From Spirochaetia bacterium (lineage in GTDB: Bacteria > Spirochaetota > Spirochaetia > CADAEX01): a DNA stretch of 64,000 bases. The DNA is taken from the NCBI GenBank assembly GCA_963662795.1, contig OY759746.1:1696001-1760000 (forward strand), given 5' to 3'. The translations under genes were made by a program, and so were the position numbers. This document shows, piece by piece, positions 37,744-61,642 of the stretch (positions within the stretch are counted from its first letter, which is position 1; each line of letters begins with the position of its first letter). The notes below the pieces were generated by a model. It did no database searches and was not told the origin of the DNA. It saw only the letters and a list, made by a program, of their open reading frames with translations.

Positions 37744-37778
37744 TTTACTTTAAAGCGGATAATATGCCAGGAGGAATA

Positions 37779-38675: not shown

Positions 38676-38701
38676 TAATTATAACCAATGGAGGTTAACA
38701 G

Positions 38702-39580: not shown

Positions 39581-39611
39581 TAATCGAGGTTTTTGTAAAT
39601 AATCGACAATA

Positions 39612-39644
39612 CAGATACCCCGAGCCGCAAGGTCGGGGTATCTG
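39612..39644 (+). terminator. GCAA-tetraloop stem-loop in an intergenic spacer
   Basis: CAGATACCCCGA-GCC-GCAA-GG-TCGGGGTATCTG; no U-tract. Confidence 0.55.
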
Positions 39645-39775
39645 ACTGTTAAGAGGCATATCTTTCAGCCGGTCAGATATACTTTAAAAAATCCTGATTC
39701 AACTTGCCGAACCGGTGAGGATTTATATAGATGAATCCTGGTTAATCTTTAAGAAAATATCCTTAGGAGAAAAAT

Positions 39776-40546: not shown

Positions 40547-40572
40547 CATAAGTCAATAATGGAGTCAAATAA

Positions 40573-41553: not shown

Positions 41554-41612
41554 TAAAAATCTGTTAAATCATATTTCTTTTGGAAATAAATACTAAAAAT
41601 TACGGAGTCATA

Positions 41613-42161
41613 ATGGGATGCACCTGCTGTAAGAACGGTAATTCTGCGCTTAATGCCGAAGCAAAAGACATTATCAGCATTACCGGAAAAGAAAAAGAGA
41701 AGACTATACCCATATTACAGGAAATTCAGAGCAGAAAAGGGTATATACCTGAAGATCTTCTAAATGAGGTTTCTGAAGTTACGGGGATTGCTGTAAGCGA
41801 CTTTTACAGTGTTGCTACATTTTATTCACAGTTCAGATTTACACCGCTCGGAAAACACCTTATCAGGGTCTGCAACGGAACTGCCTGTTTTGTTTCAGGT
41901 GCGGATATACTGTTTGATACACTTTCTGATCTTCTGAAAGTCGGTGACGGCGAGACAACCGAAGACGGGCTTTTTACTCTTGAAACTGTTGCATGCCTGG
42001 GCTGCTGTTCGCTTGCCCCTGTTGTGATGATAAGCGGAAGGGTTTACGGCAAGCAGAACTCTGACAGCATCCGGAAACTTGTCAATTCAATAATAGCTGA
42101 TGAGGCAAAAGGTGAAAAAGCAGCGGCAGCCGCCGCCGGACAAACAGGAGGGACAGCTTGA
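41613..42161 (+). CDS. NuoE/HydC-like [2Fe-2S] subunit
   Basis: VATFY, CNGTAC, ACLGCC. Start ATG 41613 after GGAG. Confidence 0.92.
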   Translation: MGCTCCKNGNSALNAEAKDIISITGKEKEKTIPILQEIQSRKGYIPEDLLNEVSEVTGIAVSDFYSVATFYSQFRFTPLGKHLIRVCNGTACFVSGADILFDTLSDLLKVGDGETTEDGLFTLETVACLGCCSLAPVVMISGRVYGKQNSDSIRKLVNSIIADEAKGEKAAAAAAGQTGGTA

Positions 42162-43951: not shown

Positions 43952-43960
43952 GGGAAAAAC

Positions 43961-46015: not shown

Positions 46016-46041
46016 ATTTTTATCAGCGAGTTAATAAATAT

Positions 46042-46099
46042 AAGCCTTCTGCTGTGCCATTCTCCCTGCGGGAATGAAAACACAGCGGAAGGCTTTTTT
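46042..46099 (+). terminator. Intrinsic (likely bidirectional) terminator
   Basis: AAGCCTTCTGCTGTG...CACAGCGGAAGGCTT followed by TTTT. Confidence 0.75.
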
Positions 46100-46122
46100 A
46101 ATAGCACAAGGGAAAAGTCATT

Positions 46123-47133
46123 TTAATAGTGATACATCACACTTTCTCTGACTATCAGCCTTGGTTTTATCGGGTTGATTGATCCTGTTTTATTTTCTTC
46201 AGGATTGAGAATTATATTTAAAGCTTTTTGAGCGATCTGATTTATTGGTATTTCAATTGTAGATATTTTAGGATAAAACAGCTCAGTTAAATTGATATTA
46301 TCATATCCCAATACAGAAATATCTTCAGGGACCCTAAGTCCTACTTCATTGATGGCAAGAATTGCGCCTATAGCCATCATATCGTTTAATGCAAATATCG
46401 CTGTAAAGTCCCTGCTTTCTTTCAGTAAATCCAGAATAAGTTCTCTTGACCTATTAATCAGATAATCACCATAAACCAGAATTTGATCCTCAAAAGATAT
46501 TCCTTTAGACTCATATTTACTTTTAATACCTGATAATCTGTTATTAGTCGATTCAAGATTTTTTGGACCAGCGACAATTGCAATTCTAAAGTGCTGGTTA
46601 TCGAATAGATACTGTGTTCCTATCTCGCCGCCTGCAAAATCATCTGCAATAACTTTATTTCCATTGTAATTTTCAATTTTTTCATCAAGAAGTATTATGT
46701 TTGTATTCGGATTATTTTCATTTAACTGTGCAAGTTCTTCGTTTGAAAGGCCGCTGCTACATAAAAATATTCCTGAGACTTTCTGCTGGAGAAGTGTTTT
46801 TATGTACTCCTTCTCTGTATCGATGCTGTAATCAGTAGTGCAGATATAAGTAAGATAGCCGGCTTTAAAGAGTGTAGATTCAATGGAATTTGCAAGCTGG
46901 GCATAGTATAGGTTTGTATTGGTTGGCAGGATTAGTCCAATTACTCTGGTTTTGCCTGTTCTCATGGCAGAAGATATTCTGTCTGTGGTATAATTATTTT
47001 CTGAAATTATATTTTTTACCTTTATATAGGTCGCTTCGCTCATATTGCCTTTAATTTTTTCGTTGAGCACATGAGAGACTGTTGCAGTGGAGACATTTGC
47101 CATTTTTGCTATATCAGTTATTCTAAGTTTCAT
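46123..47133 (-). CDS. LacI family transcriptional regulator
   Basis: ITDIAKMANVSTATVSHVLN, FALNDMMAIG, VPEDISVLGYD. Start at MKLRI (CAT 47131-47133). Confidence 0.95.
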   Translation of the reverse strand: MKLRITDIAKMANVSTATVSHVLNEKIKGNMSEATYIKVKNIISENNYTTDRISSAMRTGKTRVIGLILPTNTNLYYAQLANSIESTLFKAGYLTYICTTDYSIDTEKEYIKTLLQQKVSGIFLCSSGLSNEELAQLNENNPNTNIILLDEKIENYNGNKVIADDFAGGEIGTQYLFDNQHFRIAIVAGPKNLESTNNRLSGIKSKYESKGISFEDQILVYGDYLINRSRELILDLLKESRDFTAIFALNDMMAIGAILAINEVGLRVPEDISVLGYDNINLTELFYPKISTIEIPINQIAQKALNIILNPEENKTGSINPIKPRLIVRESVMYHY

Positions 47134-47186
47134 TCTTACTTTTATTATAAAGAATAACAAATAAAATTTAAATACCATTTGATAAA

Positions 47187-47360
47187 AACTTAAACGATTT
47201 AACATAAAAATATAATAATGCGATAAAAAAAGCTTGACAAATAGAAATTACCGTAGTTTAATAACTTAAACGTTTAAGTTAAAAAGGCTTTTTAATATCT
47301 TATAAGGTTAATAAATATATTCTATGAATATGTGAAGCACTAAAAGCTTAAACGTTTAAA
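47187..47360. promoter_or_regulatory. Three LacI-type operators and the promoter of the aldolase/aminotransferase operon
   Basis: Perfect palindrome TAACTTAAACGTTTAAGTTA 47262-47281; variants AACTTAAACGATTTAA 47187-47202 and CTTAAACGTTTAAA 47347-47360; TTGACA 47234-47239, 17 bp, TTTAAT. Confidence 0.85.
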
Positions 47361-47391
47361 TATAAGTTTTTAAAGATAAACAATAAGGAGT

Positions 47392-48195
47392 ATGAACTTG
47401 AGAAAAAGCATTGTCCTTGAAAAAATAAAAAAAAAGGAACCTGTTTTGGCTGTAATAACCGAGTTGTGTGACCCATGCGTAATAGAACTTGCTTCCCTTA
47501 TGGGTTTTGACGCCCTCTGGCTTGATCTTGAACATCATGCCTTAAGCGTTGAGAAAGCACAGGATCTGATGAGAGCCGCCAGAATTGGAAAATCAGATAT
47601 CATGGCGCGGCCTGGCAAAGGTGAGTTCATGAGAATGAGCCGGCTTCTTGAAGCAGGAGCACAGGGTATCATGTATCCGAGAGTCGAAAGTGTAGAAGAG
47701 GCAAAAGAGGTTGTCAAGTGGGCAAAGTTTTATCCTGAAGGTGAAAGAGGTGTAGATGGAGCAAATCCTGATGTTCCTTACGGTTCACTTCCTTATTCAA
47801 AATATATAAAAATTGCAAATCAGGAAACATTTCTTGTTGTGCAGATAGAAGATAAAAAAACTCTTAAAATTGCACCTGAAATTGCTGATATTTCCGGTGT
47901 TGATGTTATTTTTCTCGGGCCTCTTGATTTTTCAGTTTTAAACGGCTATCCGGGGGATACGACCCATAAGGATATTTTAGATGCGTTTAAGATTATGAAT
48001 AAAGCGGCAAATGATGCAGGAAAAATTTGGGGCACACTGGCTGGTTCACTTGATTATGTAAAACTTGCAAGAGAAAACGGGGCATCTTTTATATGCTACG
48101 GAGAAGATTTCATGTTTGTTAAAGAAGGGTTTGAAAAAATACAATTTGACTGCTTAAAACTTGGATTTTCATTTAAAAACTGTTTGATTCAGTAA
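47392..48195 (+). CDS. HpcH/HpaI (class II pyruvate) aldolase family protein
   Basis: WLDLEH, LEAGAQGIMYP, YPEGERG, VQIE, FLGPLDFS. Confidence 0.9.
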   Translation: MNLRKSIVLEKIKKKEPVLAVITELCDPCVIELASLMGFDALWLDLEHHALSVEKAQDLMRAARIGKSDIMARPGKGEFMRMSRLLEAGAQGIMYPRVESVEEAKEVVKWAKFYPEGERGVDGANPDVPYGSLPYSKYIKIANQETFLVVQIEDKKTLKIAPEIADISGVDVIFLGPLDFSVLNGYPGDTTHKDILDAFKIMNKAANDAGKIWGTLAGSLDYVKLARENGASFICYGEDFMFVKEGFEKIQFDCLKLGFSFKNCLIQ

Positions 48196-48248
48196 CATTT
48201 TTTCAGTTATTGAATAACTGAATTATTTATATTTCAGAGGAGAATAAA

Positions 48249-49679
48249 ATGAATGTTTTAAAAAGTGATTTTGCAAAATACAGAGAGAGACTTAAAACAA
48301 CAGATGCAGATTTGTTTAAAAAGGTAGACGCGTCTCCTTTTGATTTTAAAACAAAGGAACTGGCAAAAAAAGCAATTAAATACGAATCAACCGGATCTAT
48401 AGGATATGCGATCTATAATATGCCTCCTGTAATTGAAAGTGGTAAAGGTGCATATTTGTATGATGCTGATGGAAAAGAATATATAGATTTTCTGGTAGGC
48501 TTCAGTGTATCAGCGCTTGGTAACAATAATCCGGAAGTTACAAAGATTATTCAAAGACAGGCCGAAAAATTAACCCATTTTTTTGATTTCCCTCACATAG
48601 AAAGGGTTAGTTTTGCTGAAGATCTCTGCAAAAACTCAAAAATGTCGGGGGATACGAAAGTTGTCTGGGGAGTTACAGGTTCTGATGCCATCGAACTTGC
48701 AACAAGGGCCGCAAGGTATTACACAGGAAAACCTTATATTCTGACTGCGTATGGTGATTATCACGGTGTAACCTATGGAACCATGGGTCTTACAAGTAAA
48801 GGTGGAATGCAGCCCTATTTTTATCCTGTAAGACCGATCAGTGATGTCGGATATTTCAACTTTCCGCATGACTACAGAAAACCAGGCGATAAATACCCTG
48901 GTTACGGTATGGAAGCAATAAAGATGCTCGAAAGGTCTCTTGACGGGAAAGAAACACCTTTCGGCGACGGCTGCAACAAGATTAATAATGTAGCAGCAAT
49001 ACTCGTAGAACCGTTTCAGAGTTCAGCAGGCTATTATATTCCTCCTGTTGCGTATCTCCAGGAGCTTAGAAGGATCTGTGACAAGTTTGGTATCCTTTTG
49101 ATAGTTGATGAAATTCAGGCAGGACTTGGAAGAAGCGGAAAGTTGTGGGCTTTTGAACATGCCGGAATTGAACCGGATATGATTTGTACTTCAAAGGCTC
49201 TTGGCGGAGGGTTGCCTCTTGCTGCTGTTATTTCAAGGGCTGAAATATTAAGTGAATGGGGAGCCGGAGCTCATGTTTCAACACAGGCAGGAAATGTACT
49301 TGCATGTGCTGCCGGGCATTATGTCTTTAATCAGATAAACAATGAGAAATTCCTTGCGAATGTAAATGAAATGGGCGCATATTTCCGTGATGGACTTAAA
49401 GCACTTCAGGAAAAGCATAAAATCATCGGTTATATCGATAATCAGGGTTTATACACAGGAATTGAGCTTATTAAAGACAGAGATACAAAAGAACCTGCAA
49501 TTGAAGCTACAACCTATGTAAGGGATGCAAGTCTCAGGGAAGGCCTCCTCTTTGAAAAAGGCGGCTATTATCACAATAGACTTCAAATTATACCTCCTCT
49601 CAACGTAACAAAAGAAGTTCTTGATAAAGCATTGGCAATTTTTGACAAGGTTTTCGGCGAAGCCGGAAAACTGATATAG
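48249..49679 (+). CDS. Class III PLP aminotransferase (GabT-like)
   Basis: GKGAYLYDADGKEYIDF, TGSDA, YHG, EPFQ, DEIQAGLGRSG, SKALGGG. Confidence 0.92.
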   Translation: MNVLKSDFAKYRERLKTTDADLFKKVDASPFDFKTKELAKKAIKYESTGSIGYAIYNMPPVIESGKGAYLYDADGKEYIDFLVGFSVSALGNNNPEVTKIIQRQAEKLTHFFDFPHIERVSFAEDLCKNSKMSGDTKVVWGVTGSDAIELATRAARYYTGKPYILTAYGDYHGVTYGTMGLTSKGGMQPYFYPVRPISDVGYFNFPHDYRKPGDKYPGYGMEAIKMLERSLDGKETPFGDGCNKINNVAAILVEPFQSSAGYYIPPVAYLQELRRICDKFGILLIVDEIQAGLGRSGKLWAFEHAGIEPDMICTSKALGGGLPLAAVISRAEILSEWGAGAHVSTQAGNVLACAAGHYVFNQINNEKFLANVNEMGAYFRDGLKALQEKHKIIGYIDNQGLYTGIELIKDRDTKEPAIEATTYVRDASLREGLLFEKGGYYHNRLQIIPPLNVTKEVLDKALAIFDKVFGEAGKLI

Positions 49680-49691
49680 GGGGGACGAACT

Positions 49692-50699
49692 ATGAAAAAA
49701 TTCATGAATAAACCTGAAAAATTTGTTGATGAAATGCTTGAAGGAATTCTTTCGGCATATCCAAAACAACTTAATCATGCCGGCAACGATCTGAGATGCA
49801 TAATAAAAAAGAATGCAGGAAACAAAAAGAAGGTTGGACTTGCGTCAGGCGGCGGCTCAGGGCATCTTCCTGTGTTTATGGGATATGTCGGAGAGGGGAT
49901 GCTTGACGGATGTGCTGTCGGAGGTGTTTTTCAGTCTCCCAGCGCCGAGCAGATGCTTGAAGTAACCAAAGCAGTTGATGCCGGTATGGGTGTTGTATAT
50001 ATCTACGGGAATTACAGCGGAGATATCATCAATTTTGAAATGGCTCAAGAAATGGCTGAAATGGAGGATATAAAGATAAAGCATGTTCTCGGGGCAGATG
50101 ATGTTGCTTCAGCACCAAAAGGTGAAGAGAAAAAACGCCGCGGGGTTGCCGGTATATTTTACATTTTTAAGATTGCCGGAGCGCTGGCTGATGAAGGGGC
50201 GGATATTGATGCTGTAACAGCTATTGCGGAAAAAACCGGCAAACATGTCAGAACAATGGGTGTGGCTCTAACCCCATGTATTATTCCGGAAGTAGGAAAA
50301 CCATCATTTATACTCGCTGAAAATGAGATGGAAATAGGTATGGGTATCCATGGTGAGCCTGGAATCCGGCGCGGAAAACTCATGCCCGCTGATGATGTTG
50401 TTGATGAGATGATGGATGCAATACTTTTTGACCATGAACTTTCTGATGGCGATGAGGTTTCGGTACTTGTAAACGGTCTAGGTGGAACACCAAAAGAGGA
50501 ACTCTTCATCATATATAGAAGAATTAATCAGATCTTAAGCAAGAAAAAAATCAGTGTTTTTAATGTGTATTCAGGTGAATACGCAACATCAATGGAAATG
50601 GCGGGATTTTCAATTTCAATTTTGAAACTTGATTCCCAGTTGAAAAAATATCTTTCAAAGCCTGCCAATACACCTTTTTTTACGCAGATACAGCTTTAA
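49692..50699 (+). CDS. dhaK: Dihydroxyacetone kinase-like substrate-binding subunit
   Basis: SGGGSGHLP, NYSGD, RRGVAG, GMGIHGEPG, VNGLGGTP. Confidence 0.9.
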   Translation: MKKFMNKPEKFVDEMLEGILSAYPKQLNHAGNDLRCIIKKNAGNKKKVGLASGGGSGHLPVFMGYVGEGMLDGCAVGGVFQSPSAEQMLEVTKAVDAGMGVVYIYGNYSGDIINFEMAQEMAEMEDIKIKHVLGADDVASAPKGEEKKRRGVAGIFYIFKIAGALADEGADIDAVTAIAEKTGKHVRTMGVALTPCIIPEVGKPSFILAENEMEIGMGIHGEPGIRRGKLMPADDVVDEMMDAILFDHELSDGDEVSVLVNGLGGTPKEELFIIYRRINQILSKKKISVFNVYSGEYATSMEMAGFSISILKLDSQLKKYLSKPANTPFFTQIQL

Positions 50700-50718
50700 G
50701 TATCAGGGAAGGCTGGAT

Positions 50719-51351
50719 TTGACAGTTATTGGAATTAAGGAAACAAAAGAGATTATCAGGCGGATTAGTTTGATCATGATTGAGAAAAAAAATTTCCTGA
50801 TCGAACTTGACAGTGTTGTGGGGGATGGAGATCTGGGCATTACAATGGAAAAGGCCTTTTTATCTGCTGATGCGCTGCAATGCGATGAGGAAAAATTCCC
50901 AGGCAGGTATTTTATGCAGGCTGGTATTGCTATGGCCAAGGCTGCCCCTTCTACAATGGGCACATTGGTCGCTACAGGGTTTATGCGGGGAGGCAAGGCT
51001 GTAAAAGACAAAGAAAAGCTTTACAGTGACGATTTGTATTATTTCTTTAAGGCTTTTATGGATGGAATAATGGAAAGGGGAAAAACAAAAACAGGTGAAA
51101 AAACAATTGTTGATGTCCTGGAGTATATTGTAAAGGCTTTAAAAGAGAACATTGATAAAACACTTGAAGAATCGTTATCCGCTGGAATAGCTGCTGCTGA
51201 AACCGGCCTTGCGGCTACAAAAAGCATGATGGCACAACATGGAAAGGCAGCAGTATTCAGAGAGAAAACAATAGGTCTGCAGGACCAGGGTGGAACTGCA
51301 TGTCTTTATATATTTCAGGGATTTAAAGAAGCAGTTCTTGAACAGGAGTAA
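50719..51351 (+). CDS. dhaL: Dihydroxyacetone kinase-like nucleotide-binding subunit
   Basis: LDSVVGDGDLG, PSTMGTL, GEKTIVD, HGKA, DQG. Confidence 0.9.
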   Translation: MTVIGIKETKEIIRRISLIMIEKKNFLIELDSVVGDGDLGITMEKAFLSADALQCDEEKFPGRYFMQAGIAMAKAAPSTMGTLVATGFMRGGKAVKDKEKLYSDDLYYFFKAFMDGIMERGKTKTGEKTIVDVLEYIVKALKENIDKTLEESLSAGIAAAETGLAATKSMMAQHGKAAVFREKTIGLQDQGGTACLYIFQGFKEAVLEQE

Positions 51352-51354
51352 AAG

Positions 51355-51858
51355 ATGATGAATGAAATCAGGGTTGAAGTGATATCGAAAGATTCATTTT
51401 CAGGTCTTGGCTTTGGAACAGTAATTGAAGCAGGGGATATCAGGGCGGATACGGAAACAGGACAGTTTAACTGGTGGAATAAGCTCGCCGTTATCACACA
51501 TAAGGAATGTTCTCTTGGAATGGTAGAGGCCCAGCCTGTAGAAAAGGTTAAAAACAGCTCTTTCGAACATCATGGAAAAACAACAGAGATGTTGATACCG
51601 ACAACTACTGATGTATATCTTTTCCTTGGTAAGGGGAAAAGCGGGAAAAAAGAGGAATTGGACCTTAAAAGTGTCAAAGCTTTTAAGCTTAAGGCGGGGC
51701 AGGCTGTAGTTCTTGATCCATATATCTGGCACTGCGCTCCGATCGCCGGGGAAAAAATACCTACCAGAATATTTGTTCTTTTTGAAAACGGTACACCTGA
51801 AGATGATTTTTTTGCCTACAATACAGCTGAAAAAGAAAATATTGTTTTTAAAATATAA
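51355..51858 (+). CDS. Ureidoglycolate lyase-like cupin
   Basis: F..FG.VI, EHH..T.E, WHCAP pattern. Confidence 0.7.
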   Translation: MMNEIRVEVISKDSFSGLGFGTVIEAGDIRADTETGQFNWWNKLAVITHKECSLGMVEAQPVEKVKNSSFEHHGKTTEMLIPTTTDVYLFLGKGKSGKKEELDLKSVKAFKLKAGQAVVLDPYIWHCAPIAGEKIPTRIFVLFENGTPEDDFFAYNTAEKENIVFKI

Positions 51859-51877
51859 TTCATAAGGAGTAAACGGC

Positions 51878-53038
51878 ATGTATAGTTTTGATATTACATC
51901 CCCTACAAGAATAATTGCTGAAAAAAATGGTTATAAAAAAATTGGTGAAATAACGAAAAAATATGGAGCCGAAGCACTCCTGGTCACAGGCCGGAGTTCA
52001 CTTAAAAAAAGCGGTTTGGAAGCTGAAATAATTAAGCTTCTTGAATCCAGCGGAATCAGCATCACCCTTTTTGACGGTGTTGAGACAAATCCGACAAGAC
52101 AGAAAATGAATGAAGGCGGTAAAACTGCAAAGAAAGCGGGAATAGATGTTGTTGTCGGCGTCGGAGGCGGGAGTGTTCTTGATACTGCTAAAGGAATTGC
52201 TGCAATTGCAGGAATGGGATTGGAAGATGTATGGGATTTTGTCGGAGGGAAAAAGGCGACTGATGAGGTTTTACCGATAGTCGCAATTCCGACAACAGCC
52301 GGAACAGGAAGCGAGGTGACTCCCTATACGGTAATCAGTGATTTTGAACTTGAGTTGAAAGAGGGTTTTATGAGTCAATACACTATTCCCAAAGTTGCAA
52401 TTCTTGATCCTCTTGTTATGAAATCAGCAACACCTGAGCTTACAGCAAATGCAGGAATTGATGCCTTTGCCCACGCTGCTGAATCATACCTTACAAAGCT
52501 TGCCCATCCGCTTTCAGATATGTATGGAATGCAGGCCGTTAAGCTTATCTTTGAAAATCTTGAAAAAGCTTGCAAAGACCCTGATGATCTTGATGCTAGG
52601 ATGAATATGGCCCTGGCAAGTACTCTGGCGGGAATTGCGATTTCCTATGTTGATGTAATTATTGCCCATCATGCAAGTGAAGCAATAGGAGCAGTTTTTC
52701 ATACCCACCATGGTTTGACGGCGGGAATTCTGCTTATTCCTGCAATTGAATTTAATTATGAAGAATGTAAAGAAAAACTCTATTCATTGGGTGTCGCTAT
52801 TGATCCGTCGATTTCAGCATTGACTGTTGAGGACGGTGCGCACAGGACCATAAAATTAATTAAAAATTTATATTCAAAGATTGGAATTCCTGAAAATCTG
52901 GGATCTATTGGCGTTAACAGCGGCCAGAAAGCTAAAATTATGGCAATCATGGAAAACCGGATGGGAGACCTGAAAGCGGGAAATCCAAAAGAGATGAATA
53001 TGAAGAGTATCGATCAATTTATAACTAAAGTACTTTAA
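51878..53038 (+). CDS. Iron-containing alcohol dehydrogenase
   Basis: NPT, GGGSVLDTAK, PTTAGTGSEVT, DAFAHAAE, HH..., HHG. Confidence 0.93.
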   Translation: MYSFDITSPTRIIAEKNGYKKIGEITKKYGAEALLVTGRSSLKKSGLEAEIIKLLESSGISITLFDGVETNPTRQKMNEGGKTAKKAGIDVVVGVGGGSVLDTAKGIAAIAGMGLEDVWDFVGGKKATDEVLPIVAIPTTAGTGSEVTPYTVISDFELELKEGFMSQYTIPKVAILDPLVMKSATPELTANAGIDAFAHAAESYLTKLAHPLSDMYGMQAVKLIFENLEKACKDPDDLDARMNMALASTLAGIAISYVDVIIAHHASEAIGAVFHTHHGLTAGILLIPAIEFNYEECKEKLYSLGVAIDPSISALTVEDGAHRTIKLIKNLYSKIGIPENLGSIGVNSGQKAKIMAIMENRMGDLKAGNPKEMNMKSIDQFITKVL

Positions 53039-53066
53039 GTGCTTTGAATATTTTAGGAGGAAGGAA

Positions 53067-54068
53067 ATGAAAAAATTATTGCTGATTATGCTGGTTTTTC
53101 TGCTGACATTTGGTTCTGTCTTTGCAGGCGGGAAAAAAGAAGAAGCACAGGGAGGGCTTGATAAAATAACCCTGCGAACAAACTGGCTTTGGTACGGGTC
53201 ACATTCGGTATTTTTCCTCGGAATAAATAAAGGCTTTTATGAGGAAGAGGGAATTGATCTGACAGTAAAACAGGGGAATGGTTCCGGAAGCACAGTAAGG
53301 CTTGTCGCAAATAAGGACAGTACATTTGCGTATGCTTCAGCAGGGGCTTTAATTAACCTTGCCGCTACAGGAGCTCCTGTTGTTTCAATCGCAACAATCG
53401 ACGCTACAGGAGTTGATGCTGTTATTGCAAGGCCTGATTCAGGAATTAAAACTCCGAAAGATCTTGAAGGTAAAAAAATATTGACTACTGCGTCAGCCGG
53501 TGTAAACTTATTCTTTCCGCTTTTCTGTAAAAATGCCGGTGTTGATATAAATAAAGTTCAGTTGACCAATGTAGCTGACAGCGCAATTGTCCCCAGTTAC
53601 TTGCAGAATCTTGCCCCTGCAATTCTCGGAGGACTGGATGACAAACCAGCTGAAATAGTGGCAAATGGAGGAGCTGAACCTGTTACTTTTAATTATGCGG
53701 ATTATGGTGTAGATCAGCCGGGATATGCTCTTGTAGCACATACTGATATGGTTAAAAACAATCCTGATCTTGTACAGAGATTTGTGAGAGCAACCCTTAA
53801 ATCTGTTGCATATGCTGAAAAAAATCCGGACGAGGCAATTGACGCACTTATTGACTGGTCAGCAAATACAGGGGAAAATAAAACTCAGGCCAGAAGGGTT
53901 CTTGATGTGACCTTGTCTATTTTGTACTCGAATAATAATAAAGATAAAAAACTTGGTTTGAACGTACCAGCAGACTGGGAAAGCGCTGTTAAACTGATGA
54001 AAGAATATAATGATCTTAAAACCGATAGAAAAGTTACAGATTTTTACACAAATAAATTTATCAAATAA
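53067..54068 (+). CDS. NMT1/THI5-like ABC substrate-binding protein
   Basis: W...GSH, GFYEEEG, GNGS, TPKDLEGK; leader FAGGKKE. Confidence 0.85.
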   Translation: MKKLLLIMLVFLLTFGSVFAGGKKEEAQGGLDKITLRTNWLWYGSHSVFFLGINKGFYEEEGIDLTVKQGNGSGSTVRLVANKDSTFAYASAGALINLAATGAPVVSIATIDATGVDAVIARPDSGIKTPKDLEGKKILTTASAGVNLFFPLFCKNAGVDINKVQLTNVADSAIVPSYLQNLAPAILGGLDDKPAEIVANGGAEPVTFNYADYGVDQPGYALVAHTDMVKNNPDLVQRFVRATLKSVAYAEKNPDEAIDALIDWSANTGENKTQARRVLDVTLSILYSNNNKDKKLGLNVPADWESAVKLMKEYNDLKTDRKVTDFYTNKFIK

Positions 54069-54074
54069 TTACAT

Positions 54075-54106
54075 GAGGGCTGGGGTTGTTTCCCCGGCCC
54101 TCTTTT
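54075..54106 (+). terminator. Stem-loop with U-tract after the binding-protein gene
   Basis: GAGGGCTGGGG-ttgttt-CCCCGGCCCTC-TTTT. Confidence 0.7.
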
Positions 54107-54122
54107 AGCAGGTGGTTGAGAA

Positions 54123-54893
54123 ATGGAGAAAGGGTACATACAAATAGAAGAGTTACAGAAGATTTACAAGACAAGACTGGGCCCTGTTCATGCTCTTGGT
54201 CCGGTATCAATGAACATTGCTGAAGGAGAATTTGTTTCATTCCTGGGTCCTTCAGGATGCGGTAAAAGTACTCTTCTCATGATGATTGCAGGGCTTTTAA
54301 GTCACTCGGAAGGTAAAATTACAATAAATAATAAGGTTGTAAAGGATCCTCAGATTGATGTTGGAATAGTCTTTCAAAAACCAGTGTTGGTTGACTGGAG
54401 GGATGTTATCGGGAATGTAATGCTTCAGATTGAGATGCGCAAGCTTGACCGTGAAAAATATCTGCCAAGGGCAAAAGAGCTGCTGACATCAGTGGGTCTC
54501 GCTGATTTTATGACAAACAGGCCGTATGAACTTTCAGGCGGTATGCAGCAGAGAACTTCTTTCTGCAGGTCCTTGGTGCATGATCCTCCAATGATTTTAA
54601 TGGATGAACCGTTAGGCGCGCTTGATGCAATGACCAGAAACCAGCTTAGAGGGGATCTTGAAAAATTGTGGATGGATACCAAGAAAACATTATTGTTTGT
54701 TACACACGATATTGCTGAGGCAATACAACTGTCCGACAGAATAATTATTATTACACCTCGTCCTGGTAAGGTAGGAAAAATAATTGATATAAATCTTCCG
54801 CGGCCAAGAGACCTGGAAGTCAGGACTAGTAAGGAATTTATTGAATACGAAAAAGAGATAACAGATATTTTCATGAGCTATGGAGTTATGTGA
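54123..54893 (+). CDS. ABC ATP-binding protein (TauB/SsuB-like)
   Basis: GPSGCGKST, LSGGMQQR, MDEPLGALDA, VTHD. Confidence 0.93.
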   Translation: MEKGYIQIEELQKIYKTRLGPVHALGPVSMNIAEGEFVSFLGPSGCGKSTLLMMIAGLLSHSEGKITINNKVVKDPQIDVGIVFQKPVLVDWRDVIGNVMLQIEMRKLDREKYLPRAKELLTSVGLADFMTNRPYELSGGMQQRTSFCRSLVHDPPMILMDEPLGALDAMTRNQLRGDLEKLWMDTKKTLLFVTHDIAEAIQLSDRIIIITPRPGKVGKIIDINLPRPRDLEVRTSKEFIEYEKEITDIFMSYGVM

Positions 54894-55672
54894 TGGATTA
54901 TTTTCATAGAATATTAGGAAAAACAAAGGAATCCGGCGCGACAATAATTCTTTTTATAGCTCTCTTTTTCTTTTGGGAGTTTTATGTCAGAATATTCAAT
55001 GTTCAGCTCTATATTTTACCTCCGCCTTCGCTGATATTTTCAGGTCTGATAGAAAATATTGCTCTTATCTGGGAATATTCACTTGTCTCTATGACTGAAG
55101 CTTATACGGGTTTTTTTATAGCGCTTTTCATATCAATCCCTTTGTCTTTGATGATTGCCTTTTCCAAACTGTTAATGAGTACTGTATTTCCTTCGTTTGT
55201 AACACTTGAAATGGTACCAAAGATTGCTTTTGCGCCGTTGTTTATAATATGGTTTGGACTGGGGTCTCTGTCTAAATTACTTGTTGTTTTTTTGGTCTGT
55301 TTTTTCCCGATAATAATCAATGGAATTTTCGGATTTTCTTCATTGTCACAGGATCATGAATATCTTATTACATCAACCGGAGCAACTAAAATAAATGCTT
55401 TTTTTAAAATACGGCTTCCGGCAGCACTGCCGAGTTTATTTGTAGGCATTAAAGGGGCGGCTATTGCTGCTACTATCGGTGCTACAATTGCTGAATGGGT
55501 AAGCGGCAATTCAGGTCTTGGATATTATATTCAGGTTTCTTCGTCAAATTTTAAAATGGATATGGCAATAGCTGCTATTATTATGCTGACGATTATAGGG
55601 CTTGTATTATACTGGTTCGTACTAATGGTTGAAAAGCTGATAATTCCATGGCATGAATCTCAGAGAAGGTAG
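54893..55672 (+). CDS. ABC permease (TauC/SsuC-like) 1
   Basis: ILPPPS, PKIAFAPL..WFG, FFPI, KIRLPAALP. Confidence 0.92.
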   Translation: MDYFHRILGKTKESGATIILFIALFFFWEFYVRIFNVQLYILPPPSLIFSGLIENIALIWEYSLVSMTEAYTGFFIALFISIPLSLMIAFSKLLMSTVFPSFVTLEMVPKIAFAPLFIIWFGLGSLSKLLVVFLVCFFPIIINGIFGFSSLSQDHEYLITSTGATKINAFFKIRLPAALPSLFVGIKGAAIAATIGATIAEWVSGNSGLGYYIQVSSSNFKMDMAIAAIIMLTIIGLVLYWFVLMVEKLIIPWHESQRR

Positions 55673-55681
55673 GTTAAAATA

Positions 55682-56482
55682 ATGGAAGCAGCTAAAAAAA
55701 TAAAGTTATGGTTTGAAGAAAAAAATATAGTAATAATCTTTACGATACTATTCTTCCTTATATGGGAGATTGCAGTATTTGTTTTTAAATTACCTTCTTA
55801 TATTTTACCCTCTCCGATACATATATTGATTGAGCTTAAGAATAATATATCTATATTGATGCAGTTCACTTTTGTTACAGCCTATGAATCTTTTTTGGGA
55901 GTTTTTCTGGCTGCAATCATAGGAGTACCGCTGGCATTGTTAATAACATTTTCAGACTTTCTGAAAAAAACGGTTTATCCTCTTGTTGTTTCAATCCAGC
56001 TTGTTCCTAAAATTGCGCTTGCTCCTTTATTTGTAACCTGGTTTGGGTATGGACTTGCACCAAAGATAATCATAGTTTTTTTGTTATGTTTCTTTCCGAT
56101 TATTTTAAACAGCCTGCTTGGTTTTATGTCCATTAATAAAGAGTATGAAACATTTATCAAGTCTACAGGGGCAGGCCCCATAACCGCATTTTTCAAAATT
56201 AGATTTCCATTTGCTCTTCCTTATATATTTCTAGGGTTCAGGTGGGCTGCTGTCAATGCAACTGTTGGGGCAACAATAGGAGAATGGATCGGAGGAGATG
56301 CGGGATTGGGCTATTACATGCAAATTGCAACCGGCGACTTGAGAATGAATCTTGCTTTTGCAATTATTATCATGCTTGCGATCCTGGGATTAATTCTCCT
56401 TGAAGCAGTAAAATATCTGGAAAAAAAGGTAATCCCATGGCATTCTTCCCAGAGAAACAAAGAAGAAAAAAGATTAGTGTAA
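55682..56482 (+). CDS. ABC permease (TauC/SsuC-like) 2
   Basis: ILPSP, PKIALAPL..WFG, KIRFPFALP; paralog of the preceding permease. Confidence 0.92.
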   Translation: MEAAKKIKLWFEEKNIVIIFTILFFLIWEIAVFVFKLPSYILPSPIHILIELKNNISILMQFTFVTAYESFLGVFLAAIIGVPLALLITFSDFLKKTVYPLVVSIQLVPKIALAPLFVTWFGYGLAPKIIIVFLLCFFPIILNSLLGFMSINKEYETFIKSTGAGPITAFFKIRFPFALPYIFLGFRWAAVNATVGATIGEWIGGDAGLGYYMQIATGDLRMNLAFAIIIMLAILGLILLEAVKYLEKKVIPWHSSQRNKEEKRLV

Positions 56483-56502
56483 TCAAACAAGGAAATAAAT
56501 AC

Positions 56503-57252
56503 ATGAAAAATAGACTATCAGACAACAAACTACTACAGCTTAAAAGATGGAATACTCCGACAATTTACAATGGCTGGGAAATAATTACAAAGAGGGACAG
56601 AACAAAGGGTTTTAACCTTGAGGAGACACATGATTTTATGCCGAGCCTTGGGGTAATGGTCGGTTATGCTGTGACTGTCGTTTGTGAACCGTCGAATCCT
56701 GAGCATTCTAAAAAGGAAGGGGTCTGGAGCGAGTATAGAAAATATATCGCAGGCATACCCGGGCCGAAAATTGTTGTTGTTCAGGATTTGGATAAACCCG
56801 CTGTAATCGGGTCTTTCTGGGGGGAAGTGAATGCCAATACTCACAGGGCATTAGGTTGTGTCGGTACAATAACTGATGGTGCTGTAAGGGATGTTGAAGA
56901 AATGACAAATGCCGGATTTAAAGGTATCGCACGAAGAATGTGTGTGGGACATGCCTATGTAACACCGGTCAGATGGGGCTGTGAAGTTGATGTTTTTGGA
57001 TGTAAAATCAAACCCGGGGATCTCATACATGCCGATAAACATGGGTTTCTTGTTATACCGGACGAAGATCAGGAACATATAGTTGAGGCGTCTCTGTTTA
57101 TGGACAGCAATGAGTGCAATTCCGTAATTCCTGCCGCCAGATTTTCACAGTGTAAATCAAAAGATGAAGTGCTTGAAAGTCTAGATGAGGCAGATCGGAA
57201 ATTTGATAAAGCTGTAATGGATAAATTCGGAAAGGAAGGGGAGTGGAAATAG
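56503..57252 (+). CDS. RraA/HMG-aldolase family protein
   Basis: TPTIYN, GYAVT, WGEV, TDGAVRD, PGDLIHADKHG. Start ATG 56503 after AAGGA. Confidence 0.85.
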   Translation: MKNRLSDNKLLQLKRWNTPTIYNGWEIITKRDRTKGFNLEETHDFMPSLGVMVGYAVTVVCEPSNPEHSKKEGVWSEYRKYIAGIPGPKIVVVQDLDKPAVIGSFWGEVNANTHRALGCVGTITDGAVRDVEEMTNAGFKGIARRMCVGHAYVTPVRWGCEVDVFGCKIKPGDLIHADKHGFLVIPDEDQEHIVEASLFMDSNECNSVIPAARFSQCKSKDEVLESLDEADRKFDKAVMDKFGKEGEWK

Positions 57253-58209
57253 GTGAAAGCAGTTATTCTTGACGGGTTTACACTGAATCCCGGCGATATT
57301 GGATGGGGAGACCTTGAAAATGTATGCGACTTTACAATCCATGACAGAACCGATGCCGCTGATGTTGTCGAAAGATCAAAAAATGCAGAAATAATACTTA
57401 CAAATAAGACACCAATTTCAGGTGCAGATATGCAAAGACTTCCGGCGCTTAAATATATATGTGTACTTGCAACTGGATATAATGTAATAGATGTTAAAGC
57501 AGCAAAGAACAGGGGTATTATTGTTGCCAATATTCCAGCCTATGGCACACCCGCTGTTGCCCAGATGACTTTTGCACTTCTGCTTGAGTTGTGTCATCAT
57601 GTACAGAGACACTCTGATACAGTAAAGGATGGAGACTGGTCAAGAGGGCCTGATTTTTGTTATTGGAATTATCCTCTTATTGAATTAATCGAAAAAACTA
57701 TTGGAATAATCGGCTTCGGGAAAATAGGGCAGAATGTTTCGAGAATTGCAACTGCGTTCGGTATGAAAGTTATTGCCTATGATCAGGTCAGATTTGACGT
57801 AAAATCTATTGAATTTGAATGGGTAGATATTGATGCGATTTTCAGGAAATCCGATGTCCTGTCGCTTCATTGTCCGCTCTTCCCTGAAACGGAAAAAATT
57901 GTAAATAAAAAAAATATTGATAAAATGAAGAAAAGCGCTTTCCTGATCAATACCTCAAGGGGAGCACTTGTAAATGATTTTGATCTTGCTGATGCCCTTA
58001 ATAATGAAATTATTGCAGGTGCAGCCCTTGATGTTTTATCAGACAGGGAACCACCTGATATCAATAATCCTTTAATGAAGACTAAAAACTGCATAATTAC
58101 ACCGCATATTTCATGGGCGGCAAAAGAAGCCAGAATCAGGCTTTTAGATATTGCAATAAAAAATGTAAAATCATACCTTAATGGTGTGCCAATCAATACA
58201 GTAACTTAG
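57253..58209 (+). CDS. D-2-hydroxyacid dehydrogenase (glycerate dehydrogenase/hydroxypyruvate reductase type)
   Basis: LDGFTLNPGD, ATGYN, NIPAY, DFCYW, LHCPL, TPHISWA. Confidence 0.92.
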   Translation: MKAVILDGFTLNPGDIGWGDLENVCDFTIHDRTDAADVVERSKNAEIILTNKTPISGADMQRLPALKYICVLATGYNVIDVKAAKNRGIIVANIPAYGTPAVAQMTFALLLELCHHVQRHSDTVKDGDWSRGPDFCYWNYPLIELIEKTIGIIGFGKIGQNVSRIATAFGMKVIAYDQVRFDVKSIEFEWVDIDAIFRKSDVLSLHCPLFPETEKIVNKKNIDKMKKSAFLINTSRGALVNDFDLADALNNEIIAGAALDVLSDREPPDINNPLMKTKNCIITPHISWAAKEARIRLLDIAIKNVKSYLNGVPINTVT

Positions 58210-58224
58210 GCAAGAGCCTCGAAC

Positions 58225-58685
58225 ATGATACTTGATTTACTTGAAAATCTTGACAGGTATAAATCTGTAGTACCGTTTACTGATAAGATATCGTTATATC
58301 TTAAGGGAAATGATATTAATATTCTTCCTGAAGGTAAATATCAGATTGAAGGAGAATCGATTTTTATTTTGATTCAGAAATATGATAGTCAGCCTGAATC
58401 AGAAAGAGAGGGGGAATCCCATAGGAAATATATTGATATCCAGTTTGTTCTAAACGGAGAAGAATATATTGCATATTTCCGATCCAGTATCTTGAGATCA
58501 GAGATTCGTATAATGCTGAAGAAGATATAATCATATATCAGAATGATAATAAAAACAGAAGTAAGACGTACATGACAAAGGATATCTTTGCTGTATTTTT
58601 TCCGGATGACGCTCATAAACCCGGTATTCTTGCCGGCAGGGAAAGTGCAGTAAAAGAGGCTGTAATAAAAGTAGCAGTAAAATGA
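58225..58685 (+). pseudogene. YhcH/YjgK/YiaL family gene with a 1-nt frameshift near 58476
   Basis: The first frame has ESHRKYIDIQ..L.GEE. The -1 frame continues FPIQYLEIRDSYNAEEDI...FAVFFPDDAHKPG...AVKEAVIKVAVK* (TGA 58683-58685). Joined length is 153 aa. Confidence 0.82.
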
Positions 58686-58730
58686 TTTTCTGCTGTCGCT
58701 ACTGGTTGCAGAAGATCTTAGTTTAAAAAT

Positions 58731-59300
58731 TTATTCAATTATCAGGTCTTCAAGTCTTCTTTTGGGAACATGGTGTATCCACTTGTCATCCCGCCAGTAC
58801 TTGATTTCCCTGGGGTCTTTTACCTCGTCAAGCACAACTGTTTCCTTCGGCTTTCCAAGCGCTATTACAAGAATCAGTTCAAACCTGTCAGTAATTCCAA
58901 GTTCCTTTTTGAGGCCTTCCCTGTCGATTGAGCCGAACATGCATCCGCCGAAACCCTTTTCAACAGCACCCAGAAGAATGCTCTGGCAGGCTATTCCATG
59001 GTCCCAGAAGTGGTTGGCGCTGATTTCACTGTCGCCGAGCATGACAATGTAGGCTGAAGGTTTTTCCCCGTCTTTCGGCCCGTCCCAGTCCTTTAAGTAT
59101 CCTGCCCACCTGAGGTACGGGAATATCAGGCTGTTTTTCTTTTCATCACAGGAAAGGATATACTTAAGCGACTGAAGGTTTCCGCCTGTAGAGGAAAGCC
59201 TGGCAAGCTCTATAAACTCAAGGAGATCATCCCTCGGGATTTTTACATCCTGGTAAAACCGCCTGTATGTCCGGTTTTTTAAAATCAGATCCTTTATCAT
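58731..59300 (-). CDS. Nitroreductase family protein
   Basis: NRTYRRF, GGNLQSLKY, WAGYLKDW, DHGIA, VPKR. Confidence 0.9.
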   Translation of the reverse strand: MIKDLILKNRTYRRFYQDVKIPRDDLLEFIELARLSSTGGNLQSLKYILSCDEKKNSLIFPYLRWAGYLKDWDGPKDGEKPSAYIVMLGDSEISANHFWDHGIACQSILLGAVEKGFGGCMFGSIDREGLKKELGITDRFELILVIALGKPKETVVLDEVKDPREIKYWRDDKWIHHVPKRRLEDLIIE

Positions 59301-59427
59301 ATAAAAACCTCACTTAATTAAATATAATCCTGATCGGCAGAATAAGTTACTAAAATGTTTCCAGTTTTAATTAATACAGATTGTTTATCTCTTCTGGAGT
59401 TTTTCCTGCACTCTTAGGGAATTTTTC

Positions 59428-59985
59428 TCAATTCCAGCGGTTGTAGAAAAGCACTTCATCTATCGGTTTCCGGTCCCTGGGAGCTGTTTCAGAGAGAAGA
59501 TGCTTTTCATTAAGATGTTCTGTGCTGTCTCCTTTTACGCCGAGCGCAATCAGTGCTATTACTATATAAGCATCAGACACCCTGAATATTTCCTTGATTT
59601 TAAACGGATCAAAACCCGCCATGGGGTGGGCGATTAGTCCTTCTTTCTCCGCCTGCAGCATTATATTCATCACGGCAAGTCCGGTATCAAACAGTGCATA
59701 ATCCCGTCTGTCTGAAAGGCTGCACCCGAGAGAAATCTCAGTAAGGACTGCGATTATTGCCGGGCTTTTTCCTGCCCAGTAATTTGCCCCGGTAAGTGCT
59801 TCGTGAACTTTGCCGAGTGTTTCAGGATCATCCGCGGCAATAAATCTCCATGGCTGCCTGTTGAAGCAGGAAGGGGCAAGGGTAGCGGCTTTTATAAGAG
59901 TGTTTATTGTTTCCCGTGAGATTTTCTCTTCTTTTAACTTTCTTGAAGATCTTCTTTCGTAAATTTCTTTTAATATATTATTCAT
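59428..59985 (-). CDS. Nitroreductase family protein
   Basis: RRSSR, APSCFNRQPWRF, DTGLA. Confidence 0.9.
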   Translation of the reverse strand: MNNILKEIYERRSSRKLKEEKISRETINTLIKAATLAPSCFNRQPWRFIAADDPETLGKVHEALTGANYWAGKSPAIIAVLTEISLGCSLSDRRDYALFDTGLAVMNIMLQAEKEGLIAHPMAGFDPFKIKEIFRVSDAYIVIALIALGVKGDSTEHLNEKHLLSETAPRDRKPIDEVLFYNRWN

Positions 59986-60016
59986 ATATTAATATTAGCA
60001 CATTTTTTACCGGCCG

Positions 60017-60367
60017 CTACATATTTCTTGTCGCGACTATATTTACTCCCGTACCGAATATGTCCGCAATAACTATATCGCCCATTTTTACGGGAGAAGT
60101 AAGTTCCACCTTGTTTACAAGTTTCATAATCTCAAGCTTGTATTTTTCAGGTATCGGTTTATCTGTTTTCACAGGGATGACCTTGTGGATTCCCCCTTTT
60201 ATCTTCACGGTTGAACAGATCATCCTTGTAGGATTGGTTATTTCGTCTACCGCATAGCCGATTCCCCTTTTACATTTGTTCCCCGTTATCTGAAGATTGT
60301 CAACTTCCCCAGTTATTTTAAGCCTGCACCCGATAGGGCAGACAATACATACCAGTTCTTTTTCCAT
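60017..60367 (-). CDS. DUF1667 (CxxC) protein
   Basis: CIVCPIGC, GNKCKRG, P.R...STV. Confidence 0.88.
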   Translation of the reverse strand: MEKELVCIVCPIGCRLKITGEVDNLQITGNKCKRGIGYAVDEITNPTRMICSTVKIKGGIHKVIPVKTDKPIPEKYKLEIMKLVNKVELTSPVKMGDIVIADIFGTGVNIVATRNM

Positions 60368-60369
60368 GG

Positions 60370-61629: not shown

Positions 61630-61642
61630 TATGCCTCTCCTG

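Follow-up and report, generated by a model that had tools for sequence, protein, structure and literature searches.

In the taurine Tpa-Ald module, a taurine:pyruvate aminotransferase (Tpa) is arranged with an alanine dehydrogenase (Ald), and the same pathway includes a sulfoacetaldehyde reductase and a TauABC importer. Here, we compare this and other described systems with an operon of 13 genes from a Spirochaetia bacterium (GenBank assembly GCA_963662795.1), located within a 64,000-nucleotide stretch of contig OY759746.1 (positions 1,696,001 to 1,760,000) that was analysed as a whole and is referred to as the window. All enzymes of the operon belong to known superfamilies, and its logic resembles that of the Tpa-Ald module: a class-III pyridoxal phosphate (PLP) enzyme is predicted to move the amino group of a small primary amine to pyruvate, an iron-type alcohol dehydrogenase (Fe-ADH) and a NitT/TauT-type importer accompany the transaminase, and alanine dehydrogenase is adjacent in relatives of the window. 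However, the operon lacks a sulfonate-specific step, its product would pass to the kinase pair DhaK/DhaL, and the genome contains no AlaDh_PNT_C match and hence no alanine dehydrogenase.

Other known systems share individual parts. Like the dha regulon of anaerobic glycerol use (GldA-DhaKLM), the operon combines an iron-type alcohol dehydrogenase with a two-subunit Dak1/Dak2 kinase that keeps the catalytic segments, but this pair has no DhaM nearby, its DhaK is 44% identical to the canonical DhaK of the same genome and altered just after the first catalytic His, and entry is proposed to be by deamination instead of glycerol oxidation. In E. coli GabT, R141 is the arginine that binds the distal carboxylate, and E211 and R398 form a Glu/Arg switch; the window enzyme shares the fold, the PLP lysine and the cofactor contacts of GabT, but has Val, Ser and Gln at these three positions. 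With the GarL-GarR-GarK branch for D-glucarate and galactarate and with non-phosphorylative sugar-acid routes, the locus shares an HpcH-family aldolase and a reductase for C3 oxo compounds, and a glycerate kinase lies beside the corresponding genes in a related locus; however, the window reductase is a 2-Hacid_dh protein and not of GarR type, a dehydratase is missing, and the RraA-like protein stands outside the classical route. Finally, PbfA is likewise a class-III protein that was found by genomic context and has altered key residues, and it acts on a beta-hydroxy amine (PMC8154272). The window differs in containing no phosphonate gene, and the linkage to alanine dehydrogenase in its relatives favours transamination.

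An earlier note, made from the sequence alone, knew of no described pathway with this gene set, and none was found in the literature searched. Queries on a pairing of aminotransferase with DhaK/DhaL, on catabolism of serinol or amino-alcohols via DhaK, on serinol as a nitrogen source and on cysteinolic acid catabolism returned nothing relevant, with most subscription journals lying outside the search.

We propose that the operon is a mosaic of three modules and not one linear pathway that deaminates and then cleaves its substrate, because the modules recur separately in other genomes. The reading that we prefer, and to which we give about an even chance of being right, is a LacI-repressed, probably transferred operon that would convert a C3 amino-diol via a triose to a triose phosphate. 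In the following sections, we describe the modules and the evidence for and against this reading.

The class-III enzyme departs from GABA transaminases

The class-III PLP enzyme (Aminotran_3, family P0001; 48249..49679, + strand) is a member of PF00202 (317 bits, gathering score 30.5), and all 69 NCBIfam matches shown or counted for it fall below their cut-offs. The gamma-aminobutyrate (GABA) transaminase equivalogs score 234-270 bits against cut-offs of 507-725, and the ArgD models are likewise below threshold, as are LeuMetRace (282 vs 800), the alanine/serine racemase family (249 vs 639) and PbfA (242 vs 525). Its best solved relatives are archaeal amino-acid racemases, an isoleucine 2-epimerase and GABA transaminases (210-251 bits); the racemases and the epimerase match at 227-251 bits with roughly one-third identity.

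An alignment of 12 family members with E. coli GabT (K-12 record) showed that the equivalents of the PLP lysine K268 and of D239, Q242 and T297 are kept in all 12. R141, E211 and R398 are replaced by Val, Ser and Gln, respectively, again in 12 of 12. Regular-expression counts over 46 sequences gave 46/46 for R141 to Val, 37/46 for E211 to Ser and 44/46 for R398 to Gln, each being the number of sequences that matched the expression. Two residues before the replaced R398 position, the family has an invariant Arg, whereas the four distinct proteins behind the five best PDB alignments all keep Arg at the canonical place. The below-cut-off equivalogs and the three replaced recognition residues together rule out a plain GABA/ornithine transaminase, an identity that the earlier note had listed, along with a lack of co-occurrence elsewhere, as refuting its proposal. 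The family is large: among the matches listed, more than 120 clusters with orthologues 62-96% identical carry no informative name and are labelled only GABA-transaminase-like.

The aminotransferase recurs with DhaK and DhaL

We compared the neighbourhoods of 53 related loci, nine orthologous ones from species-representative genomes and 44 usable ones from metagenomes; the 29%-identical paralogues L010 and L059 and the loci of the own genome were left out. Neighbours were counted as tblastn matches spanning at least half of each query, over the 47 loci that have a full aminotransferase match. Many loci are short, and the absence of a neighbour is therefore weak evidence.

DhaK lies within 10 kb of an aminotransferase orthologue (61-71% identical) in 12 of the 47 loci, to which the fragment L057 adds one, and DhaL was found in ten. 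Grouped at 90% identity, the 46 full-length sequences form 24 clusters, ten of which are DhaK-linked (window included). The linked loci come from metagenomes and from metagenome-assembled genomes of Spirochaetota, Actinomycetota and Bacillota, and the co-occurrence elsewhere on which the earlier proposal depended is thus borne out for the aminotransferase and DhaK in several phyla. In a quick tree, the DhaK-linked aminotransferases cluster together, with a marine clade nested among them, and the FGGY-linked ones form separate clades.

Alanine dehydrogenase is adjacent in six of the 47 loci (five of the 12 DhaK-linked ones) and in two fragments. It belongs to the same transcription unit in L004, L007 and L008 and lies next to the regulator in L017 and L018. 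This frequent adjacency points to pyruvate as the amino acceptor, and we predict from sequence and context that the enzyme is an amine:pyruvate aminotransferase. Frames of 160 amino acids that follow alanine dehydrogenase in L004 and L008 were considered as cupin homologues, but show no similarity and are probably spurious.

The remaining neighbours are more variable. Short-chain dehydrogenases/reductases (SDR) occur in 13 of the 47 loci, ArgE/DapE-type M20 deacylases in nine and FGGY pentulose-kinase-like proteins in six. Fe-ADH and RraA-like proteins are each found in four, which are the same ones (L007, L008, L015, and L026); orthologues of the NMT1 binding protein are present in three of these (L007, L008, and L026), and a 2-hydroxyacid dehydrogenase (2HADH) in L015 only. 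None of the 53 related loci has a match to HpcH, the cupin or YhcH, even at a limit of E <= 1e-3. The importer can be of NMT1, CUT1, CUT2 or Opp-like type according to Pfam/NCBIfam annotation, and the enzymes ahead of the core comprise an M20 deacylase, a GFO/MocA oxidoreductase with a TIM-barrel protein, or a protein resembling SbnB and ornithine cyclodeaminase (SbnB/OCD-like). Minimal loci (L001 and L019) contain a transporter, the aminotransferase, DhaKL, a regulator and one SDR and nothing more; L122, which came from the genome search, is likewise minimal, with the aminotransferase, a CUT1 ATP-binding cassette (ABC) importer, a HAD protein, DhaK and DhaL. The arrangement nearest to that of the window is L015, which consists of LacI, Fe-ADH, aminotransferase, DhaK, DhaL, RraA (66% identical) and 2HADH (57%). 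Ten aminotransferase loci examined from genomes of the phylum have FGGY, SDR, M20, TIM-barrel or HAD neighbours, and not DhaK. The aminotransferase, DhaK and DhaL form a recurring core module, with a predicted chemistry that is set out below.

Some related loci contain further elements. In the marine clade (L038-L048, L046/L047/L056), whose members are 61-65% identical, the aminotransferase is accompanied by a CUT1 ABC importer, a GntR regulator and an SDR only, and a kinase is missing; this clade may be a version for a different amine or one for nitrogen scavenging only. Parts of corrinoid methyltransferase systems (MTTB, B12-binding, URO-D-like) stand beside the aminotransferase in L023 (4570-6749), L005 (5563-5976), L001 (8081-8875) and L019 (12522-13787), and beside an RraA orthologue in L135 (527-1645), which may mean that part of the substrates reach the cell in N-methylated form and need demethylation first. 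The L008 cluster is preceded by a BhcB-like 3-hydroxyaspartate dehydratase (5788-6753; 439 bits, short of the cut-off), and the cluster of L018, which carries an Opp-type importer, includes an SbnB/OCD-like protein (5068-6195). Both are possible release steps for conjugated amines.

The kinase pair belongs to a non-canonical branch

DhaK (Dak1, substrate-binding subunit; 49692..50699, +, Pfam 405 bits) reaches 396.4 bits against TIGR02363 (cut-off 406.25), and DhaL (Dak2, nucleotide-binding subunit; 50719..51351, +, Pfam 130 bits), in which the Asp-rich Mg/nucleotide segment is kept, reaches 123.7 bits against TIGR02365 (cut-off 138.3). The catalytic residues of E. coli DhaK are His56, Asp109 and His218. 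All three catalytic segments are kept in the 13 aminotransferase-linked DhaK proteins that were aligned, and all 13 have two common substitutions just after the first catalytic His, which are missing from the canonical DhaK of the genome and from the solved DhaK proteins of E. coli and L. lactis. On sequence grounds, the linked DhaK proteins are a non-canonical subfamily.

The canonical dhaK-dhaL-dhaM set of the genome lies 1.6 Mb away and holds its sole dha_pts match. At this locus (G000:C1:134592-136619), the DhaM-type domain is found inside a frame of 866 amino acids, presumably a multidomain protein of the phosphotransferase system. A DhaM gene was found neither in the operon nor in the annotated related loci, and DhaM of the canonical set may serve the window kinase in trans.

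When 400 genomes of the phylum were searched for relatives of the window DhaK, 27 other genomes gave matches at 48-66% identity. The substituted segment is present in 20 of the 29 returned loci, the other nine being unmatched by the search expression. The subfamily occurs in nine of the 12 phylum genomes with the aminotransferase versus 18 of the 388 without it, a comparison that is confounded by 11 of the 12 belonging to one family. Its neighbourhoods fall into several types. L120, L115 and L117 contain an RbsB-type sugar ABC importer, a cupin, DhaK, DhaL and sometimes a PfkB kinase; L118 and L126 combine LacI, an aldolase of dihydrodipicolinate synthase (DHDPS) type, TctCBA, DhaK and DhaL; and six loci place DhaKL next to an FGGY kinase and a TIM barrel that resembles isomerases. 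L120 (4593-12255), which includes the PfkB gene, and L118 (4384-11496) are compact, aminotransferase-free operons of non-canonical DhaKL that represent uncharacterised routes.

The ureidoglycolate-lyase-like cupin of the window (P0004; 51355..51858, +) matches PF04115 (E 1.3e-8) and DUF4867 (E 1.2e-7). Cupins that are 30-35% identical to it adjoin DhaK-DhaL of this subfamily in sugar-ABC operons that lack the aminotransferase (L086/L115 and L105/L120; 35% for that of L120). Atlas look-ups for the cupin and the RraA-like protein gave family names only, with PF04115 carried by the neighbours of the cupin. Judging by these contexts, the DhaKL branch serves as the terminal kinase in several routes for small sugars and sugar acids, and the cupin is a partner of DhaKL and not of the aminotransferase, predicted to act as a small-sugar isomerase. 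Since the pyruvate aldolases that accompany the branch release aldehydes, we infer a lean toward glyceraldehyde as the kinase substrate.

RraA and the 2-hydroxyacid dehydrogenase form an independent module

The RraA-like protein (HMG/CHA-aldolase / oxaloacetate-decarboxylase fold; 56503..57252, +, Pfam 76 bits) is encoded in a frame that is open from 56437, but its start is most likely at 56503, as relatives align only from about residue 23. It scores 39.9 bits against the equivalog for 4-hydroxy-4-methyl-2-oxoglutarate/4-carboxy-4-hydroxy-2-oxoadipate (HMG/CHA) aldolase (LigK/PcmE; cut-off 304.5) and matches PDB entry 3noj with an E-value of 1e-4. The protein of L015 is 66% identical to it and those of L007, L008 and L026 are 32% identical; orthologues of the window type (61-71%) were found in four of the 400 phylum genomes, in hydroxy-acid or sugar-acid clusters. 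The following gene encodes a D-2-hydroxyacid dehydrogenase (2-Hacid_dh, glycerate/glyoxylate-reductase-like; 57253..58209, +), whose solved relatives are 5tx7 (339 bits) and the glycerate dehydrogenase 6p2i (164 bits).

2HADH adjoins the RraA orthologue in L015 (57%) and in L132 (56%). In the latter, the pair diverges from genes for a class-I glycerate kinase, an AtuA-like protein and a 2-hydroxycarboxylate transporter, and neither an aminotransferase nor DhaK is present. L133 contains DHDPS, HpcH and RraA, with an HpcH only 25% identical to that of the window; L134 contains an SDR, TctCBA, a TIM barrel, 2HADH, DHDPS and RraA; and L135 contains RraA, a URO-D-like gene, an intact YhcH of 149 amino acids and DHDPS. 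RraA-2HADH is an independent module of hydroxy-acid and sugar-acid catabolism, because it recurs, typically with a pyruvate aldolase and once with YhcH, outside aminotransferase loci. The genome itself has no class-I glycerate kinase and encodes two MOFRL-type glycerate kinases elsewhere.

HpcH, the first gene of the operon (HpcH_HpaI, class II pyruvate aldolase family; 47392..48195, +, Pfam 99 bits), scores 96-127 bits against the GarL/HpaI/RhmA equivalogs (cut-offs 369-441), with GarL as the best match (127 vs 407). HpaI and YfaU are its best solved relatives, at about 100 bits, and its best matches in the 400 phylum genomes are 35-37% identical. It appears to be a window-specific addition to the aminotransferase core. 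The earlier suggestion of two aldolases acting in line with the aminotransferase is not supported, given the absence of HpcH from the 53 related loci and the occurrence of the RraA-2HADH pair without aminotransferase or DhaK in L132.

The Fe-ADH and the importer

The Fe-ADH (51878..53038, +) has ErcA and lactaldehyde reductase as its best NCBIfam matches, at about 250 bits and below cut-off, and scores 187 bits against the sulfoacetaldehyde reductase SarD, also below cut-off. Genes 47-49% identical to it lie directly upstream of the aminotransferase in L007, L008, L015 and L026. The whole NitT/TauT-type ABC importer spans 53067..56482 (+) and comprises an NMT1 binding protein (53067-54068), an ATPase (54123-54893) and two BPD_transp_1 permeases (54890-55672 and 55682-56482). 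The orthologues of the binding protein in L007, L008 and L026 are 59-61% identical. None of the components reaches a TauABC equivalog (binding protein 25 vs 304 bits, ATPase 201 vs 357, permeases 73-80 vs 342), and the binding protein scores 81 bits against SsuA_fam, below cut-off. Among solved proteins, it comes closest to 4nmy and to 3ix1, which binds a pyrimidine precursor.

A proposed route from amino-diol to triose phosphate and its alternatives

In the preferred reading, the NMT1/TauA-family ABC importer would take up a small primary amine with vicinal hydroxyls, most likely a C3 amino-diol, either 3-amino-1,2-propanediol or serinol, whether it occurs free or is first freed from a conjugate. 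The class-III enzyme would transfer the amino group to pyruvate, and the resulting triose (glyceraldehyde or dihydroxyacetone) would be phosphorylated by the non-canonical DhaK/DhaL to glyceraldehyde 3-phosphate or dihydroxyacetone phosphate, which would enter glycolysis. In the second module, the cupin would convert the small sugar between its aldo and keto (or D and L) forms, and the Fe-ADH would keep the reactive aldehyde in equilibrium with its alcohol. The RraA-like protein, 2HADH and HpcH would yield pyruvate and reduce the oxo-acid co-product to glycerate or glycolate; this pyruvate would be the amino acceptor in a genome that has no alanine dehydrogenase to recycle it. Conversion of serinol to dihydroxyacetone and of 3-amino-1,2-propanediol to glyceraldehyde fit equally well. 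An aldehyde product is slightly favoured, because an Fe-ADH gene lies directly upstream of the aminotransferase in four loci and because of the aldolase partners of the kinase branch and the RhaI/XylA-like isomerase in the FGGY-type sister loci.

Several points weigh against this reading. The identity of the substrate is something that we infer outright, and to our knowledge free C3 amino-diols have few well-documented natural sources. The family has lost the Arg that binds the alpha-carboxylate in GabT and in the closest solved relatives, so that keto-acid binding, and with it transaminase chemistry, is not assured. DhaKL is missing from 35 of the 47 loci, which include the marine CUT1 ABC and SDR clade and the FGGY/isomerase/M20 loci, and conversely 18 phylum genomes contain the DhaKL subfamily without the aminotransferase. 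The nearest solved relatives of the binding protein bind a pyrimidine precursor and not an amino-alcohol. Since HpcH, the cupin and YhcH are absent from the related loci, their link to the amine is unproven. The weakest step of the proposal is the role of the RraA-like protein, which coexists with alanine dehydrogenase in L007 and L008 and is therefore not a simple substitute for it.

The earlier idea of one linear path, in which a nitrogen-containing polyhydroxy acid is deaminated and then cut by HpcH and/or the RraA-like protein into (hydroxy)pyruvate and a triose, with the triose passing to DhaKL and the oxo-acid to 2HADH, seems to us unlikely. It would account for all genes standing in one tight operon under one LacI gene and for their assembly in L015, where Fe-ADH, aminotransferase, DhaK and DhaL occur together with RraA (66%) and 2HADH (57%). 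A DHDPS-type pyruvate aldolase and TctCBA accompany the DhaKL subfamily in L118 and L126, and alpha-amino acids are the substrates of the solved proteins closest to the aminotransferase. However, in nine of the 12 DhaK-linked loci neither RraA nor HpcH nor any other aldolase could be recognised nearby, the RraA-2HADH pair does without aminotransferase and DhaK in L132, and HpcH has a counterpart in no related locus. The replaced Arg/Glu pair of GabT raises a different alternative, that the class-III protein is an ammonia-lyase, a racemase/epimerase or another off-shoot that acts on an amino-alcohol or amino acid and leaves its product to the kinase. The best solved matches are indeed racemases and an epimerase (227-251 bits), and PbfA is a precedent for a class-III protein with altered key residues that is a lyase and not a transaminase (PMC8154272). 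Yet the racemases themselves keep the canonical Arg, the invariant Arg two residues upstream of the lost one could bind the carboxylate, and the linkage to alanine dehydrogenase in L004, L007, L008, L017 and L018 is sensible only if alanine is a product, which makes this alternative rather improbable.

Two further alternatives concern the substrate. The DhaK subfamily departs from all solved dihydroxyacetone kinases near the active site, erythrulose kinases of the DhaK family exist (a literature search on them returned only yeast papers), and sister genomes place DhaKL with FGGY kinases, SDRs and xylose-isomerase-like TIM barrels; DhaKL could thus be a kinase of tetruloses (erythrulose-type), with a C4 amino-triol as the amine and erythrose 4-phosphate as the end product. 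Against this, neither the window nor the minimal loci L001, L019 and L122 contain a candidate tetrulose-phosphate isomerase. As the minimal loci have no dedicated enzyme after the kinase, a triose phosphate is the expected product, so a triose is favoured over a tetrulose, and we regard a C4 route as a long shot. Least convincing of all is assimilation of a taurine-like or C3 amino-sulfonate, where a TauABC-like importer, an amine:pyruvate transaminase and an Fe-ADH that reduces a sulfo-aldehyde would act as in the conversion of taurine to isethionate for nitrogen assimilation. The importer does belong to the NitT/TauT family, with matches to the taurine ATPase (201 bits), SsuA_fam (81) and SarD (187 for the Fe-ADH) that are all below cut-off, and alanine dehydrogenase is present in relatives. 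Nevertheless, the binding protein reaches 25 bits against the taurine binding-protein model and is nearer to ThiY-like proteins, and the solved taurine:2-oxoglutarate transaminase matches the class-III enzyme with 153 bits compared with 251 for the best PDB match. Other loci rely on CUT1/CUT2 importers of sugar type and on LacI regulators, a desulfonating enzyme is missing, and DhaKL, the most constant partner, has no place in such a scheme; we therefore consider it very improbable.

Operon structure, regulation and origin

The 13 genes lie on the + strand from 47392 to 58530/58685 in one tightly packed run (ORF, or open reading frame, listing), with intergenic distances of -4 to 54 nt according to the ORF coordinates. 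The Pfam search matched the domain calls of the earlier note for every gene of this co-directional run. The last gene, yhcH/DUF386 (58225..58685, +), proved to be frameshifted. Its frame 0 ends at 58530 after 101 amino acids, which correspond to profile positions 1-83 of 145, and the C-terminal remainder is in a different frame (58494-58685), placing the break between about 58459 and 58494. Contigs from runs of two studies, which may include the source sample, carry exactly the same letters here, and the broken gene is therefore probably a genuine pseudogene and not an assembly slip. Among the 14 proteins searched against NCBIfam, none reaches an equivalog cut-off, and the YhcH subfamily model TIGR00022 is the only model passed. 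DhaK and DhaL miss theirs narrowly, whereas the aldolases, the Fe-ADH, the transporter and the dehydrogenase miss by a wide margin.

A LacI-family repressor (Pfam LacI + Peripla_BP_1/3; 46123..47205, -) is encoded divergently from the operon. The 186-nt spacer between lacI and hpcH contains two candidate operators, a perfect 20-nt palindrome (47262..47281) and a second copy of its 12-nt palindromic core (47348..47359). These are the only two exact copies of the core in the window, for the whole of which 0.39 matches are expected when one mismatch is allowed. CG-centred palindromes of a similar kind precede the aminotransferase or Fe-ADH gene in L015, L017, L018 and L122; the exact core was found in none of the other loci except within the own genome. 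A promoter and terminator consensus scan of 45900-59500 gave counts no higher than shuffles, and a look through public runs for RNA that contains the locus turned up none. LacI relatives (40-44% identical) adjoin the aminotransferase in ten of the 47 related loci. The G+C content of the operon is 0.34-0.42 versus 0.45-0.51 in the genes just upstream, and an aminotransferase orthologue is absent from the 40 nearest genomes, both of which fit a transfer; by these sequence features, the operon was probably acquired horizontally.

Flanking regions

Upstream of the operon, the window contains a second large catabolic cluster (27856-41553) with four Zn-type alcohol dehydrogenases, a branched-chain-type ABC importer, a GntR/FCD regulator, UPF0261, a DHDPS-family aldolase, a creatininase-family amidohydrolase, an SDR and another 2-hydroxyacid dehydrogenase. 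The space directly between this cluster and the operon (41580-46015) holds a row of genes for a NuoE-like (2Fe-2S thioredoxin-like), a NuoF-like (Complex1_51K) and a GltD-like protein (Fer2_4 + Fer4_20 + Pyr_redox_2), the layout of an NADH/ferredoxin-linked oxidoreductase. Downstream, the - strand (58731-63070) carries two genes of the nitroreductase family, then one for a Pyr_redox_2 protein and one for a DAO protein with a BFD-like [2Fe-2S] domain. The last pair resembles gene sets of the anaerobic glycerol-3-phosphate-dehydrogenase type, which would suit a triose/glycerol neighbourhood.

Implications for amino-polyol catabolism

Beyond the window, we tentatively suggest, as a possibility that falls clearly short of an even chance, that the class-III family, with its carboxylate-binding Arg moved by two residues and its Glu/Arg switch lost, is the signature of an undescribed and widespread catabolism of free amino-polyols. 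The amino group would go to pyruvate and the carbon would be returned as a free sugar of matching length, to be phosphorylated by a length-matched kinase, in a route present in Spirochaetota, Actinomycetota, Bacillota and the marine clade. For C3 compounds, the kinase would be a non-canonical, DhaM-independent DhaKL for a triose (probably glyceraldehyde) together with the cupin isomerase, and for C5 compounds an FGGY pentulose kinase would act with an aldose-ketose isomerase. Conjugated amines would be freed beforehand by deacylases, opine-type oxidoreductases or corrinoid demethylases.

The pairing of aminotransferase and DhaKL suits a coupled assay, in which an amine, pyruvate and ATP would give alanine and triose phosphate. 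If the proposal is true, it would name a large unannotated class-III family, with more than 120 clusters at a minimum of 62% identity among the matches listed, and define a second, non-canonical branch of DhaK/DhaL. It would also make small amino-polyols a class of nutrients for which the searched literature holds no catabolic route, and would correct the routine mis-annotation of these proteins as GABA transaminase and dihydroxyacetone kinase.

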